A stretch of 40,888 bases of DNA from an uncultured Candidatus Saccharibacteria bacterium (GCA_964348645.1 CAYGDK010000002.1:1-40888), one strand, 5' to 3'. Shown: positions 2,758 through 40,888, counted from the stretch's first letter. Notes: a model not told the origin generated them from the sequence alone. Numbers and translations are program-made.

Positions 2758-2830
2758 GCCTATTTAGCTCAGTTGGTAGAGCGTCAAATTTGTAATTTGA
2801 ATGTCGTGGGTTCAAACCCTACAATAGGCT
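2758..2830 (+). tRNA. tRNA-Thr(UGU): tRNA-Thr (anticodon TGT)
   Basis: Hand-folded cloverleaf: GCCTATT-TA-GCTC-AGTTGGTA-GAGC-G-TCAAA-TTTGTAA-TTTGA-ATGTC-GTGGG-TTCAAAC-CCTAC-AATAGGC-T. Confidence 0.9.
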
Positions 2831-2852
2831 CAAAGAAAACGGGGTGTAATTT

Positions 2853-3152
2853 ATGAATAACGAAGAATACAGACTATACATAGGTAATTTAGAATACAAT
2901 ACTACATCTTCCGACCTTACAACTTATTTGGAGGAAGCAGGAAAAGTGTTTAAGGTTGATATTATTCGCGATGGTCAAACAGGGAGAGCAAAAGGTTTTG
3001 CATTTGTTAACATGGAAAACAAAGAAAGTATAGACAAAGCAATTGAACTGTTTCACTTAAAAGAATTTCGCGGACGAAAACTTGTAGTATCAGAAGCAAA
3101 GACAAGAACTACTAATTATATTCCAAGTCCATCAAGAACTACTTTTAGGTAA
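2853..3152 (+). CDS. Single-RRM RNA-binding protein (99 aa)
   Basis: RNP-2 LYIGNL and RNP-1 KGFAFVNM at canonical spacing. GGGGTG SD-like box 8 nt upstream of the ATG. Confidence 0.9.
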   Translation: MNNEEYRLYIGNLEYNTTSSDLTTYLEEAGKVFKVDIIRDGQTGRAKGFAFVNMENKESIDKAIELFHLKEFRGRKLVVSEAKTRTTNYIPSPSRTTFR

Positions 3153-3317
3153 TTAACCAACAAACATTTGTTGACCCTCTGTGTAAACGACTGGAGGTTG
3201 AGAAAATTTTTTTTCGCGTTTAGACATGAAGACAGGAATATAGGAAAGTAAAGCTTTTGTTATTTCTTCTCCTGTACCATTTTTAATAATTTTTTTAATT
3301 TTTTTCTTTGTTATCAT
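3153..3317 (-). CDS. Possible 54-aa ORF (MITKKKIKKIIKNGTGEEIT..MFVG)
   Basis: Hand-translated and below the track cutoff. No motif. May be noise in the AT-rich spacer. Confidence 0.2.
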   Translation of the reverse strand: MITKKKIKKIIKNGTGEEITKALLSYIPVFMSKREKKFSQPPVVYTEGQQMFVG

Positions 3318-3319
3318 AT

Positions 3320-3646
3320 TGTTTTAAGTTGATCCCTATTGGGACTACGCACCTAACCCTAAAGGAAGAGTTAGTCTATGTTTTATAAACGGCAATCAAA
3401 TTTTTGTAAAGTGTCTTTTCTTTGCGTCGAGTACCACTAATACCAGCTACGGTTTTGATTGAAACCTTGAACTATCCCCATAGGGAAACGCCCATTGCCC
3501 TGCTCCCACCATCGGTTTTTCATGCAACGGAGATTTCCGTTGCTTGGCTTTCCGTTTGCCGTTTTATACTGGTCTGGTGGATCTGCCGATAAGGTAACCA
3601 GTTGCTTTGAAGTTGATAGATGTATATAATAGATTTTGCATATCTA
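3320..3646 (+). ncRNA. Candidate structured RNA (unclassified)
   Basis: No ORF of 60 aa or more in any frame across about 390 nt. About 48% GC over 3421-3600 by hand count. Helices: long-range TATAAACGGCA(3384-3394)/TGCCGTTTTATA(3557-3568); hairpins 3451-3466, 3525-3542 and 3568-3573/3597-3602. Followed by a plus-strand terminator. Confidence 0.45.
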
Positions 3647-3706: not shown

Positions 3707-4234
3707 TCACTTCTTATGTTTGTTAATGTAAATCCAACCTTTAGAAACTGCATTTTGGGTTCGTTCTACTGCGGTTTCTTTCATTTCAACATCATGTTCT
3801 GTACTCCAGTAAATCTCCCCACGTTCTTTTAGGGGTGCACGTTTAATCATAACTTCTGCAATAGCATTTTTATTTCCTTTGCGATATTGTTTAAATCCAG
3901 CAACCATGTCTGGGTGAATAACAAAAGCCGAGTTGTCGTCAATTAAAGTTCCATCACATCTTTTGCCAACATGCTCACATTCAAAGACTGTTATTAAGTT
4001 TTCTGCGTCGTTACTTCCACCATTACCGTTTGGGTCAACACGATGAACTTGAAGCTTTGGGGCTCTCAACTTACTTATGCAACCGTCGCAGTTTCCACCA
4101 GTATAAAAACCTTTCTCTTCTGAATAGTGTCTCATTTGTGAAGTGTGGTTGTCTCTCTCTATTATCTTTTGTCGTTGCGTTGAGGTTAATCGCTCCACAC
4201 TATCCAGTTTGACAGCACGAGATTTTACAAACAA
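3707..4234 (-). CDS. HNH endonuclease
   Basis: LQVHRVDPNGNGGSNDAENLITVFECEH matches the H-N-H core. TTG start as given by the track. Confidence 0.8.
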   Translation of the reverse strand: MFVKSRAVKLDSVERLTSTQRQKIIERDNHTSQMRHYSEEKGFYTGGNCDGCISKLRAPKLQVHRVDPNGNGGSNDAENLITVFECEHVGKRCDGTLIDDNSAFVIHPDMVAGFKQYRKGNKNAIAEVMIKRAPLKERGEIYWSTEHDVEMKETAVERTQNAVSKGWIYINKHKK

Positions 4235-4309
4235 CTAGATATTAATGTATCATTATTCCACAGTAGACTTGATGAAACACCCAGCCGTGTCAATCTCGTC
4301 TACTTTTTT

Positions 4310-4435
4310 TTAGTTTAGTATTCCAAAACCTACTAACAGTAAAAGTATTCCTACTATTAATGTTACGGCCTTGTTTCCAATTCCTAACGTAGTTAGTATT
4401 ACTCCTGCCAAAACTATATTATTTAAATTCATCAT
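4310..4435 (-). CDS. 41-aa two-TM micro-protein at the end of the lysis cassette
   Basis: Hand translation MMNLNNIVLAGVILTTLGIGNKAVTLIVGILLLLVGFGILN. Confidence 0.4.
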   Translation of the reverse strand: MMNLNNIVLAGVILTTLGIGNKAVTLIVGILLLLVGFGILN

Positions 4436-4542
4436 ATCTCACCGCCTCTCAGAAATCCCCACTCCACACTTGGGTAGTGGAAGACTTGGATTGAAAAACC
4501 CTAGTTCCTAGCCTCCCAAAGTGCAGGGCGAGAAAAAAGAAC

Positions 4543-4776
4543 TTACAAACCAGTCAAACCGTTATTGTTTATAATACCCGTGTCTAGTTTGTGCAACATT
4601 TTGTCTATACCTGAAAGCAAAGCAATAACAAAAGCCATTGCCCACACTTGCCAAGTAAACTTTTGAGATTGTAAATCAAGAATAACTGTTGGAATTACAG
4701 CCATAATTGAAGTTCTTAAAAGCTCTTTTAATCCCTCCATAACTGCTGTTTTATTAAATTTTGTCATAATTCTCAC
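4543..4776 (-). CDS. Holin-like small membrane protein
   Basis: 77 aa with two hydrophobic segments. GTGA overlap with the M23 peptidase stop (alternative ATG at 4767). Confidence 0.55.
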   Translation of the reverse strand: MRIMTKFNKTAVMEGLKELLRTSIMAVIPTVILDLQSQKFTWQVWAMAFVIALLSGIDKMLHKLDTGIINNNGLTGL

Positions 4777-5687
4777 GCCCTCTCTGTAATTATTACCAAA
4801 CCACCAAAAGAAAGAACCTTAACATAGTCTTTATCTTGGTATTTGTATACAACTTTAATTTGTGAAGCGTCGATTGCTTCTTTAAGCTTTACCATCAATC
4901 CCTGAGCCTTACCCACAAGCTCTTCATTACTTGATCCGATGGTAACACCTAAAATTTCCTTTAAGGAATAAAGAGTATTTTTGTATTCCTCAATAGTTCT
5001 CTCCATAGCAACGTCGTTATCTTCTGCGTTCCAAGCTTCCAACCACTTAACTTTAGATCTACTATCGTTTTTAAGAAGATCATTAATCAAGTCAACTGTA
5101 TTTTCGTTCTTTTGAAGTCTAGCTTTTTTCTCATCATTGTTTGGATACTCGCCAGTTATTGCTTTGTAGGCGTCTATTATAATTTGTTCTTTGTTGTTTT
5201 CCATAGGTTTTGGTATTATCGGTTCTGTCTGATCCACAAATTCAACAACCAGCTTAACTTCTTTTTCGTCTCTATATTCAGTATGGCCATGAGCACCTGT
5301 GGAATTACCCGTACTTCCCATTTGTGCAACCGTCTGACCAGCCGAGACTTCTGTTCCAACAGGTAAAACCGATCCCTGTTTAAAGTGTGAACCCAATTGA
5401 TAAATAGTTTTTCCATCTACAGTTCCTTTGATTTTAATATAGTTTCCATAATCTGCTGTTAATAATGCTCTCGGTTTTATTTTACCTTTTGAATCTAATA
5501 CTTTGTAAGGGTCACTTTCTGTGTTGGCCAACCAGTTTCTAGTTTCGCTATTTTTAGATTGTACGACTTTACCAAAAATAGAAGATTTGTAATTTGTATC
5601 TGGCACGTCGTCGTGATCATAAGCATTGTACCCATGTGACTTTGGAGTACCTGTCTGCTTATTATTTGTAGGTTTTAATACCTTCAT
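4773..5687 (-). CDS. M23 (LytM-type) peptidase, probable endolysin
   Basis: GSTGNSTGAHGHTEY is the M23 HxH signature. Flanked by TM proteins. Confidence 0.85.
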   Translation of the reverse strand: MKVLKPTNNKQTGTPKSHGYNAYDHDDVPDTNYKSSIFGKVVQSKNSETRNWLANTESDPYKVLDSKGKIKPRALLTADYGNYIKIKGTVDGKTIYQLGSHFKQGSVLPVGTEVSAGQTVAQMGSTGNSTGAHGHTEYRDEKEVKLVVEFVDQTEPIIPKPMENNKEQIIIDAYKAITGEYPNNDEKKARLQKNENTVDLINDLLKNDSRSKVKWLEAWNAEDNDVAMERTIEEYKNTLYSLKEILGVTIGSSNEELVGKAQGLMVKLKEAIDASQIKVVYKYQDKDYVKVLSFGGLVIITERA

Positions 5688-33098: not shown

Positions 33099-33229
33099 AG
33101 ACGGGTCTAGGATTTGAACCTATATGACTTTATAGTTTTACAACTGATGGATAAATACGGATCAATGCACAATCCCATTCTAACTCTAGTCTTACAGTTA
33201 TTAGCGTCTACCAATTCCGCCACCCCGTC
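33099..33229 (-). tRNA. Class-II tRNA (Tyr-GUA-like) interrupted by about 47 nt after position 37
   Basis: 5' end GACGGGG-TG-GCG-GAATTGGTAGA-CGC-T-AATAA-CTGTAA. 3' end G-TTGTA-AA-ACT-ATAA-AGT-CAT-ATAGG-TTCAAAT-CCTAG-ACCCGTC-T. 131 nt in total against about 85 expected. Confidence 0.45.
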
Positions 33230-33247
33230 TTGTATAAATTAAAAAGC

Positions 33248-33328
33248 TTTAGGAGAGTGAGCAAGGACTTGCACCCTGCATTTAACCGATTCTTGGCCTC
33301 CAGATTTAGGCAACCTCACTCCCCTAAA
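33248..33328 (-). ncRNA. tRNA-like element with a T arm and a 14-bp terminal stem but no canonical anticodon arm
   Basis: TTTAGGGGAGTGAG pairs with CTCACTCTCCTAAA. D-like hairpin GCCT-AAATCTGG-AGGC. T arm CAGGG-TGCAAGT-CCTTG. No 5-7-5 anticodon stem-loop was found by exhaustive hand check. Confidence 0.35.
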
Positions 33329-33330
33329 AC

Positions 33331-33456
33331 CTTTTAGCTTCTAATTGTGGGGGTCGACCTCATAAGTCGACCAAGCATGGCTCGGTGTTTTTAGAATCAT
33401 GCGATTATTTCAACTGCCCGAAGAATAATAGTATGAAACACCCCTACGATTAAAAG
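33331..33456 (-). ncRNA. Hairpin-dense leader preceding the tRNA-like elements
   Basis: GGTGTTT/AAACACC long-range helix; ATTATT-CTTCGG..-AATAAT; CCGAG-CCATG-CTTGG; perfect GGTCGAC-TTATGAG-GTCGACC. No ORF. Confidence 0.25.
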
Positions 33457-40652: not shown

Positions 40653-40888
40653 TTATTTTATATAATATCCCTGTAACCTTTGTAAACCTTGTTCTCTAGG
40701 ATTCATGTATAAAAGATCTCCACTACCGATTAACTTTTCTGCTCCCACTTCGTCCAAAATTACTTGGCTATCTATTTTTGTACTAACCATAAACGATACC
40801 CTTGTTGGTATGTTTGCTTTGATTAAGCCTGTTATAACATCAACTGATGGCCTTTGTGTAGCAACTACAAGGTGTATACCTACTGCTC
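40653..40888 (-). CDS. 3' end of the same exonuclease-FtsK ORF
   Basis: Hand translation: ..[70 protein letters not shown], stop TAA at 40653-40655. 1730 + 181 unique nt = 1911 nt = 637 codons. Confidence 0.85.
40834..40888. repeat. Terminal overlap, copy 2 (identical to 1-55)
   Basis: Direct comparison with bases 1-55. Confidence 0.95.

Follow-up and report, generated by a model that had tools for sequence, protein, structure and literature searches.

We analysed a 40,888-nucleotide (nt) stretch of DNA assigned to an uncultured Candidatus Saccharibacteria bacterium (GCA_964348645.1 CAYGDK010000002.1:1-40888), referred to below as the window, and in particular an element on its minus strand that resembles a transfer RNA (tRNA) and that an initial annotation, made from the sequence, had described as an interrupted tRNA gene. 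Positions 1-55 of the window are exactly identical to positions 40834-40888, and because of this 55-nt terminal overlap the window is a complete circular phage genome of ~40.83 kb; Pfam searches identified an SU10-type portal, an adaptor and a capsid protein among its products. The tRNA-like element is the first gene of a co-oriented cluster in which genes for tRNA-Asp, tRNA-Trp, tRNA-Pro, tRNA-Gln and tRNA-Asn follow at 33094-32567, and the small and large terminase genes are located downstream of this cluster. The tRNA-Asp gene begins 4 nt downstream of the element and the nearest promoter-like site on the same strand is located at 33816-33787, i.e. not close to the element, which suggests that the element is co-transcribed with the cluster.

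Read on the minus strand, the element consists of GACGGGG-TG-GCGGAATTGGTAGACGC, an 80-nt middle and ATAGG-TTCAAAT-CCTAG-ACCCGTC-T. It follows the cloverleaf order, with six of seven acceptor pairs, a D arm composed of a 3-base-pair (bp) stem and a leucine-type loop, and four of five T-stem pairs (Table 1). The initial annotation was right in describing a tRNA-derived gene with class-II features and a middle far exceeding the normal tRNA length, and the G7-A66 mismatch that it had noted in the acceptor stem is real. A second mismatch that it had not flagged, A49-G65, affects the outer pair of the T stem and is adjacent to G7-A66. The Rfam tRNA model (RF00005) aligned to the element end to end with a score of 21.4 bits (E = 0.13; gathering score 29), and assigned 38 nt to the anticodon loop and 23 nt to the variable region. 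Neither default ARAGORN nor Rfam at its gathering threshold called the element; its five neighbours were called. The end-to-end Rfam alignment, the position in a tRNA cluster and the recurrence of covarying ends in other sequences, described below, show that the tRNA likeness of the locus exceeds chance. As a whole, the element folds with z = -1.1.

Table 1. Parts of the tRNA-like element and their positions in the window
Feature	Position	Strand	Support or remark
tRNA-like element	33229 (5' end)-33099	minus	all sequence strings quoted in the initial annotation are present
Acceptor stem, 5' strand GACGGGG, nt 1-7	33223..33229	minus	6/7 pairs with 33100-33106
U8-G9	33221..33222	minus	TG at the same place in 198/199 family members
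Leucine-type D arm GCGGAATTGGTAGACGC	33204..33220	minus	matched to the D arm in the Rfam tRNA alignment
Linker UAAUAACUGUAA (U26-A-A, 5 nt, GUAA)	33192..33203	minus	fits the subfamily consensus T-A-A, N0-10, GTAA
Arm-closing helix, 5' strand GACU	33188..33191	minus	partner AGUC at 33126-33129
Variable arm interior, 58 nt	33130..33187	minus	constrained folds, prediction only
Predicted hairpin AUGGG..UCCAU	33178-33147	minus	encloses GGAUU-GUGCAUU-GAUCC, the hairpin of the initial annotation
Predicted hairpin AGUU-GUAA-AACU	33145-33134	minus	constrained folds
Arm-closing helix, 3' strand AGUC	33126..33129	minus	subfamily comparison and constrained folds
A-U junction, U equivalent to U48	33124..33125	minus	T before the T stem in 198/199 members
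T arm ATAGG-TTCAAAT-CCTAG	33107..33123	minus	4/5 pairs, A49-G65 mismatch
Acceptor stem, 3' strand ACCCGTC, and discriminator U73	33099..33106	minus	CCA not encoded

A scan of viral contigs for the D-arm string, a gap of 62-92 nt and the T-loop string gave 36 stretches, all of which have complementary 7-nt ends of many different sequences and whose middles show no similarity to each other. With wider D-arm/T-loop patterns at least 120 viral stretches were retrieved, and species-representative genomes contributed 101 stretches, some of them from Bacteroidota, Proteobacteria, candidate phyla radiation lineages and Chlorobi, mainly from metagenome-assembled genomes (MAGs) but also from isolates. 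For one subfamily pattern 27 stretches were obtained from metagenomes. Before any filtering for pairing, 123 of the 134 distinct pattern matches had at least six of seven acceptor pairs and at least four of five T-stem pairs. Canonical tRNA-Leu genes (middle of 31-34 nt) and a few partial duplications were then removed. The 199 distinct elements that remained have 139 different acceptor stems and lie for the most part on viral contigs and in prophages. The duplications concern genome contigs (L264, L276, L274 and L204) on which real tRNA-Leu genes follow partial duplications of their own 5' part and so mimic long middles in the length filter; these may be assembly artefacts or true duplications.

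Common to the elements are an acceptor stem of 7 bp, U8-G9, D and T arms, the D arm being of the leucine type, and a U directly before the T stem. Both U8-G9 and this U are present in 198 of the 199 elements; the discriminator is A in 109 of the 139 distinct acceptor stems, and in ~80% of acceptor stems that differ mutually at four or more of seven positions. CCA is encoded in 17 of the 199. The place of the anticodon and variable arms is taken by a middle of 43-170 nt (median 60) that cannot be aligned between subfamilies. In an alignment of 94 distinct cores, which was filtered for pairing (the unfiltered figure being the 123 of 134 given above), all seven acceptor pairs and three T-stem pairs vary on both sides, and 99.2% of the cells pair compared with 35-49% when the partners are slid. 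The three covarying T-stem pairs are those that the search pattern had left unset. The pattern did set 13 bases of the D arm, AATTGGTAGACGC, so that conservation of this arm in the family is not independent evidence. Like the D arm, the T loop was fixed by the pattern; the independent features are the acceptor stem, U8-G9, U48, A73 and the arm. In one subfamily (L028, L081, L174), inspection of the sequences by eye revealed compensatory changes in three nested arm helices.

When analysed with Rfam, family members matched the tRNA model alone, at 36-40 bits. Some of the family loci are located within tRNA clusters and others have no tRNA nearby, and no conserved protein neighbour was found across 37 loci. 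In the isolates Bacteroides sp. KFT8 and Parabacteroides segnis, the copies lie among genes for Erf, exonuclease, SSB, helicase and primase. Several genomes contain paralogs that agree in acceptor stem and T arm and differ in their middles. The 129-kb viral contig L046 holds five of them (4188-5493), one acceptor stem differing by a single base; they follow a tRNA-Leu(UAA) gene at 3160-3445 that is split by a group I intron. Other variants were observed as well. Elements on L037 (from 550), L105, L168 and L175 have an extra D-loop insertion of 20-70 nt between GCGGAA(U) and UGGUAGAC. The Bacteroides sp. KFT8 prophage (L237) encodes, at 1811-1879, a 69-nt tRNA-like RNA with an anticodon arm, CAUGU-UUU-ACAUG, that has a 3-nt loop, and, at 2477-2603, a second long Leu-like element with a variant D arm, both adjoining a family member at 2694-2791. 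Composite tRNA-like genes, in which a second T and D arm are nested between outer tRNA-like halves, occur on L135 (minus strand, offset 2117) and on L237 from 536.

No description of this family was found in Rfam 15 or in the full-text literature searched, a corpus that leaves out most subscription journals. A BLAST search of the window tRNA region against GenBank phages returned only a tRNA-Asn fragment; one family member used as query gave no match at E 1e-3 and generic tRNA-Leu/tRNA-Gln pieces at E 10, so that no member from a cultured phage was obtained in this way. An exact 31-nt string of the window was absent from the viral contigs scanned.

The middle of the window element could be placed by comparison with one subfamily. 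Among the 203 elements whose middle is 43 nt or longer, 22 have GTAAGA in its first 24 nt, compared with 1.7 in shuffled sequences. The consensus of these 22 members is C25-U26-A-A, 0-10 variable nt, GUAA, a helix that opens with G-A and closes with U-C, R-U, and the T stem. In 13 members 4-7 contiguous pairs start right after GUAA and end exactly 2 nt before the T stem, and in three further members 7 pairs are formed with a 4-nt offset; when the partners were slid by one to three positions mostly 0-2 pairs remained. The closing helices differ from each other (GAATAG/CTATTC, GATTGA/TCAATC, GAGTGA/TCACTC, GAGAC/GTCTC), and all open with G-A and close with U-C. The arm interiors could not be aligned across the members. 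The window copy fits this pattern: in RNA notation it reads UAAUAACU-GUAA-GACU, 58 nt, AGUC-AU-T stem, corresponding to TAATAACT-GTAA-GACT..AGTC-AT in the DNA, and its helix of 4 bp compares with 5-7 bp in 12 other members. Together, these comparisons show that subfamily members proceed from the D stem through a predicted single-stranded linker to one hairpin arm ending 2 nt before the T stem, and this arm would occupy the variable-arm position. They also show that the arm interior differs among subfamilies and among paralogs of one phage, and that family members lack an anticodon stem-loop.

These results bear directly on the Tyr-GUA tRNA with a 47-nt insert at 37/38 that the initial annotation had proposed. 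This proposal found no support, the boundaries conserved in the relatives being nt 26 and U48. What had been read as the loop start C32-U33-GUA-A37 is, in the relatives, part of the conserved GUAAGA motif, and the two bases preceding it are variable (GT, AA, CG, AG, CT, TC and others). Since the window copy fits the subfamily pattern, this string is accounted for by the linker's end together with the conserved GUAA. The linker, which holds the CUGUAA in question, occupies the place of the 5' half of an anticodon arm, and in 9 of the 22 members GUAA is preceded by fewer than 8 nt, into which nt 26, a 5-nt stem and positions 32-33 would not fit. The proposed variable arm ACT-ATAA-AGT overlaps AGUC, the 3' strand of the helix supported by the comparison. 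The pairing of CTG with CAG, proposed as an extension of the anticodon helix, is not distinctive either: the pairing between linker and interior of which it is part is equalled or bettered by 24% of shuffled linkers. More generally, no subfamily member exceeded shuffles in such pseudoknot-like pairing, and none of it recurred in relatives.

ARAGORN with intron search, which had been suggested as a check, did call an intron-bearing tRNA; this was not Tyr-GUA with 47 nt, however, but Asn(GUU) with a 36-nt intron at 36/37, in a model that also shows a long, poorly paired variable arm. The initial annotation, ARAGORN and Rfam concur on the ends of the element and differ on the anticodon and on the 3' strand of its stem, which is TTGTA in the first and TTATC in the other two. 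Both proposed stems have just four of five pairs and they are mutually incompatible, and the anticodon-arm part of the original observation is ambiguous. Furthermore, no 5-bp anticodon stem with a 7-nt loop is conserved in the homologues, no anticodon arm could be recovered in any relative by removing one single insert, and the shortest middles of the family (43-47 nt) contain no anticodon arm recognisable by inspection. Homologous loci, which were to be compared for presence or absence of the insert, included no insert-free relative, and in the closest relative the whole gene is missing. Finally, by the standards of bacterial tRNA sequences, the D arm of the window element is of the leucine and not of the tyrosine type; a pattern built from it retrieved genuine tRNA-Leu genes.

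In agreement with the initial annotation, the element does not contain a group I intron: the Rfam model RF00028 had no match in the window even at E <= 10, and the positive control, the intron of the L046 tRNA-Leu gene, scored 61 bits. A degenerate group I intron was considered and discarded, given that there is no core match and that the middle is far too small. Pfam identified no splicing endonuclease or RNA ligase among the 40 open reading frames (ORFs) of the complete genome, most of which have no Pfam match at all. On the basis of these comparisons the intron reading of the locus was rejected.

The initial annotation had also listed a tRNA mimic among its options, and this option agrees with the comparison of relatives. 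We propose, with a probability of roughly three in four, that the locus belongs to a large family of phage-borne RNAs that derive from class-II tRNA-Leu, and that it neither decodes nor contains an intron. The window element has the U8-G9, the leucine-type D arm, the T arm, the acceptor stem and an 80-nt middle without anticodon arm that characterize the family. Several observations weigh against this proposal. The window element carries U73 instead of A73, it is the only one among the 199 members in which both acceptor and T stem are imperfect, its Rfam score is only 21.4 bits and its arm-closing helix is only 4 bp long. Computed free energies do not discriminate among the family model (-25.8 kcal/mol), the model of the initial annotation (-26.7 kcal/mol) and the unconstrained core fold (-29.2 kcal/mol); that of the ARAGORN/Rfam model is -20.2 kcal/mol. 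As to the family as a whole, the 94 cores had been filtered for pairing, D arm and T loop had been fixed by the pattern, and a helix of at least 5 bp beside the T stem, present in 71% of members, is only moderately enriched over shuffles (46%). Moreover, A73 could in part be inherited from a tRNA-Leu ancestor and not selected. The gene is also dispensable, because it is absent from the closest relative of the phage.

This relative, L001, was the only close one obtained in a search with the large terminase (89% identity). It has the same five tRNAs, and at ~575-710 a different structured stretch (ACGGCACT...AGTGCCGT) is present in place of the tRNA-like gene. The upstream hairpin GGTCGAC..GGTCGACC, followed by CACAATTAGAAG, is common to L001 and the window (33345-33392). 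The site of the tRNA-like gene looks like a hotspot for the exchange of small RNA genes. Three retrieved contigs with identical proteins, from two sample accessions, have an identical locus without any variation.

How might such an RNA act? The element would be transcribed together with the downstream tRNAs and released by host RNase P and 3' trimming, and CCA would be added as for a tRNA. Because it has no anticodon arm, the RNA should be unable to decode, and its tRNA body could act as a non-decoding mimic. The most likely action would be binding to, or charging by, the host leucyl-tRNA synthetase (LeuRS), or interaction with another protein that reads the acceptor end, the elbow and the variable-arm side of class-II tRNAs, and the variable arm may add a lineage-specific function. 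Features reported to be critical for LeuRS are A73, U8-A14, A15-U48, G18-U55, G19-C56 and how the variable arm is oriented; U48 is the partner of A15 in tRNA-Leu, and the A15-U48 pair plays a role in leucine identity (PMC2377443). Removing the entire anticodon stem-loop caused only a 2.5-fold loss of LeuRS affinity, and the A73U change decreased leucylation 45-fold in Aquifex aeolicus (PMC2377443). The family keeps the LeuRS identity set and the anticodon arm that it has lost is dispensable for leucylation, which favours LeuRS as the partner; nevertheless, we put forward the LeuRS-centred mechanism tentatively, as a possibility more apt to fail than to hold. Apart from A73, the sequence elements of leucine identity are present in the window element. 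U73 and the two adjacent mismatches would probably make the window copy a weak LeuRS substrate, and this copy may be a divergent or decaying member of the family. Deliberate loss of decoding would fit with the Bacteroides prophage described above, since besides two family members it has the tRNA-like gene with the 3-nt loop.

Other explanations were weighed against a non-decoding tRNA-Leu mimic. One is that the tRNA body serves only as a scaffold for processing or stability, the variable arm functioning as a small regulatory RNA, an aptamer or an antisense loop. Parallels are provided by engineered tRNA scaffolds and by murine gammaherpesvirus 68, whose miRNAs are preceded by tRNA-like units. 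Such a role would agree with the D-loop insertions in some members and with arm interiors that vary greatly between subfamilies and between paralogs of one phage while the core is conserved, arms being conserved within subfamilies with compensatory changes. However, a pure scaffold needs neither A73 nor U48 and both are conserved. In addition, no significant complementarity to their own loci was detected for the arms of the 203 long-middle elements, which gave only chance-level 12-mers, internal palindromes and paralogs, and the window arm had no antisense target in the whole phage genome. We consider a scaffold function unlikely.

Less probable still is that the window element is a decaying, non-functional copy, i.e. 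a pseudogene of the tRNA-like family or of tRNA-Leu carried in the tRNA cluster. Decay would account for the mismatches in both stems, for U73 where ~80% of members have A, for a score below the Rfam tRNA threshold when other members reach 36-40 bits, and for the absence of the gene from L001. Against this, the subfamily signature (UAA, GUAA, the GA/UC helix and A-U48) is intact, the locus is identical in three contigs from two sample accessions, and the distance to tRNA-Asp corresponds to that of a processed gene in the cluster. Besides, the two mismatches involve adjacent bases of the 3' strand, G65 opposite A49 and A66 opposite G7 across the acceptor/T stack, and may be tolerated.

The same low likelihood is assigned to a decoy directed at those anti-phage proteins of the host that act on tRNAs at sites other than the anticodon, such as nucleotidyltransferase and acetyltransferase toxins acting on the acceptor end or nucleases acting on class-II variable loops. 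The genes are phage-borne, accessory and often multicopy and have no conserved protein partner, the 3-nt anticodon loop encoded by the same Bacteroides prophage suggests that decoding was lost deliberately, and Septu is reported to cut the variable loop of tRNA-Tyr (PMC13096335). The idea is entirely inferential, though, with no defence system linked to the loci, and the variability of the arm speaks against mimicry of one specific variable arm.

Finally, an intron-containing class-II tRNA, either Tyr-GUA with 47 nt after position 37 or Asn-GUU with 36 nt at 36/37, spliced by some activity into a decoding tRNA, is highly improbable: its C-U-G-U-A-A string after a possible 5-nt stem, the ARAGORN model, the 38-nt Rfam insertion in the anticodon loop and an energetically equal fold are outweighed by tools that disagree on stem and anticodon, by GUA lying inside a conserved motif with no room for a stem in 9 of 22 members, by the shortest middles, by the leucine-type D arm and by the lack of matches to a group I intron in the window or, in the Pfam search of 40 ORFs, to splicing enzymes.

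Some other features of the window deserve mention. Directly upstream of the tRNA-like gene, at 33242-33335 on the minus strand, lies a strongly structured RNA (minimum free energy -42 kcal/mol, z = -4.5) in which a ~20-bp helix closes a three-way junction and which includes a T-arm-like hairpin, GCAGGG-UGCAAGU-CCUUGC; Rfam gave only weak, chance-level overlaps for this region. The tRNA-Gln of the phage (32728-32799, minus strand) has the T loop UGCAAAU, in which position 55 is G and not U, and this unusual type of T loop recurs in the upstream structured RNA. On the plus strand, a 99-residue RNA-binding protein of the RRM_1 type (E = 2.5e-19) is encoded at 2758-3152 after a tRNA-Thr gene; the annotated genes outside this module are on the minus strand. 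The flanks of other family loci contained no homologue of the RRM protein.

The family has practical consequences. tRNA finders miss such genes or call them intron-bearing tRNAs, and several of them exceed the threshold of the Rfam tRNA model; phage tRNA counts and arguments about codon usage are affected by such miscalls. About 200 or more sequences that keep the features read by LeuRS and by processing enzymes and drop the part read by the ribosome suggest that phages employ the tRNA shape outside translation. It is conceivable, although we regard it as doubtful, that phages of many bacterial phyla carry previously undescribed anticodon-less tRNA-Leu mimics that are matured by the host, are bound or leucylated by LeuRS and act outside decoding as, e.g., decoys or cofactors when phage and host are in conflict, with a hypervariable arm setting specificity. 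Cultured lysogens exist for the Bacteroidales members (Bacteroides sp. KFT8 and Parabacteroides segnis BX2). The family also offers a comparative handle on the stable non-tRNA RNAs of phage tRNA clusters, such as the species 1 RNA of phage T4.

How does the element compare with known systems? As judged from the comparisons presented here, it lacks defining features of a canonical tRNA, a protein-spliced intron, a group I intron and a transfer-messenger RNA (tmRNA). With the tRNA-Leu(UAA) genes of cyanobacteria and plastids that contain a group I intron it shares a leucine-type D arm and an interrupted tRNA-Leu middle; in the L046 example of this arrangement, however, the intron is ~190 nt long, scores 61 bits and is inserted, within an intact anticodon arm, between U34 and A35, whereas the window element has neither an Intron_gpI match nor an anticodon arm. 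Protein-spliced 37/38 introns of archaea and eukaryotes are similar in being short inserts in the anticodon region of a tRNA-shaped gene. In contrast, relatives of the window element have no conserved mature anticodon arm and come mostly from bacterial genomes and MAGs, and neither a splicing endonuclease nor a ligase was recognised by Pfam in the 40 ORFs of the phage. The tRNA-like domain of tmRNA resembles the family in that it consists of a tRNA top half that is missing the anticodon arm, with a long helix leaving the core. The window element differs from it by having C-G at 3-70 and hence no G3-U70 alanine identity pair, and by an intact D stem; moreover, family elements of ~115-140 nt have no mRNA-like reading frame or pseudoknots, and the window middle is only 80 nt. 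Default ARAGORN found no tmRNA, and a relaxed threshold gave a spurious permuted model of 490 nt.

The species 1 RNA (rnaC) of phage T4 is alike in being a non-decoding phage RNA of ~140 nt, encoded in a tRNA cluster, with a T arm and an acceptor-like helix. It shows no sequence similarity to the family and has no leucine-type D arm, and its weak tRNA-Sec-like match (17.5 bits) extends over the 3' 93 nt; the resemblance is one of analogy, not homology. The closest counterpart is bacterial class-II tRNA-Leu itself, with which the family shares the acceptor stem, U8-G9, the D arm GCGGAAUUGGUAGACGC, A15-U48, the T arm, A73 in most members and an arm on the variable-arm side. In vitro, leucylation persists in an engineered tRNA-Leu from which the anticodon stem-loop is missing (PMC2377443). 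The family differs from tRNA-Leu in having a linker of 7-15 nt instead of an anticodon stem-loop, an arm that is much longer and more variable, and genes that are phage-encoded and, as proposed here, non-decoding.

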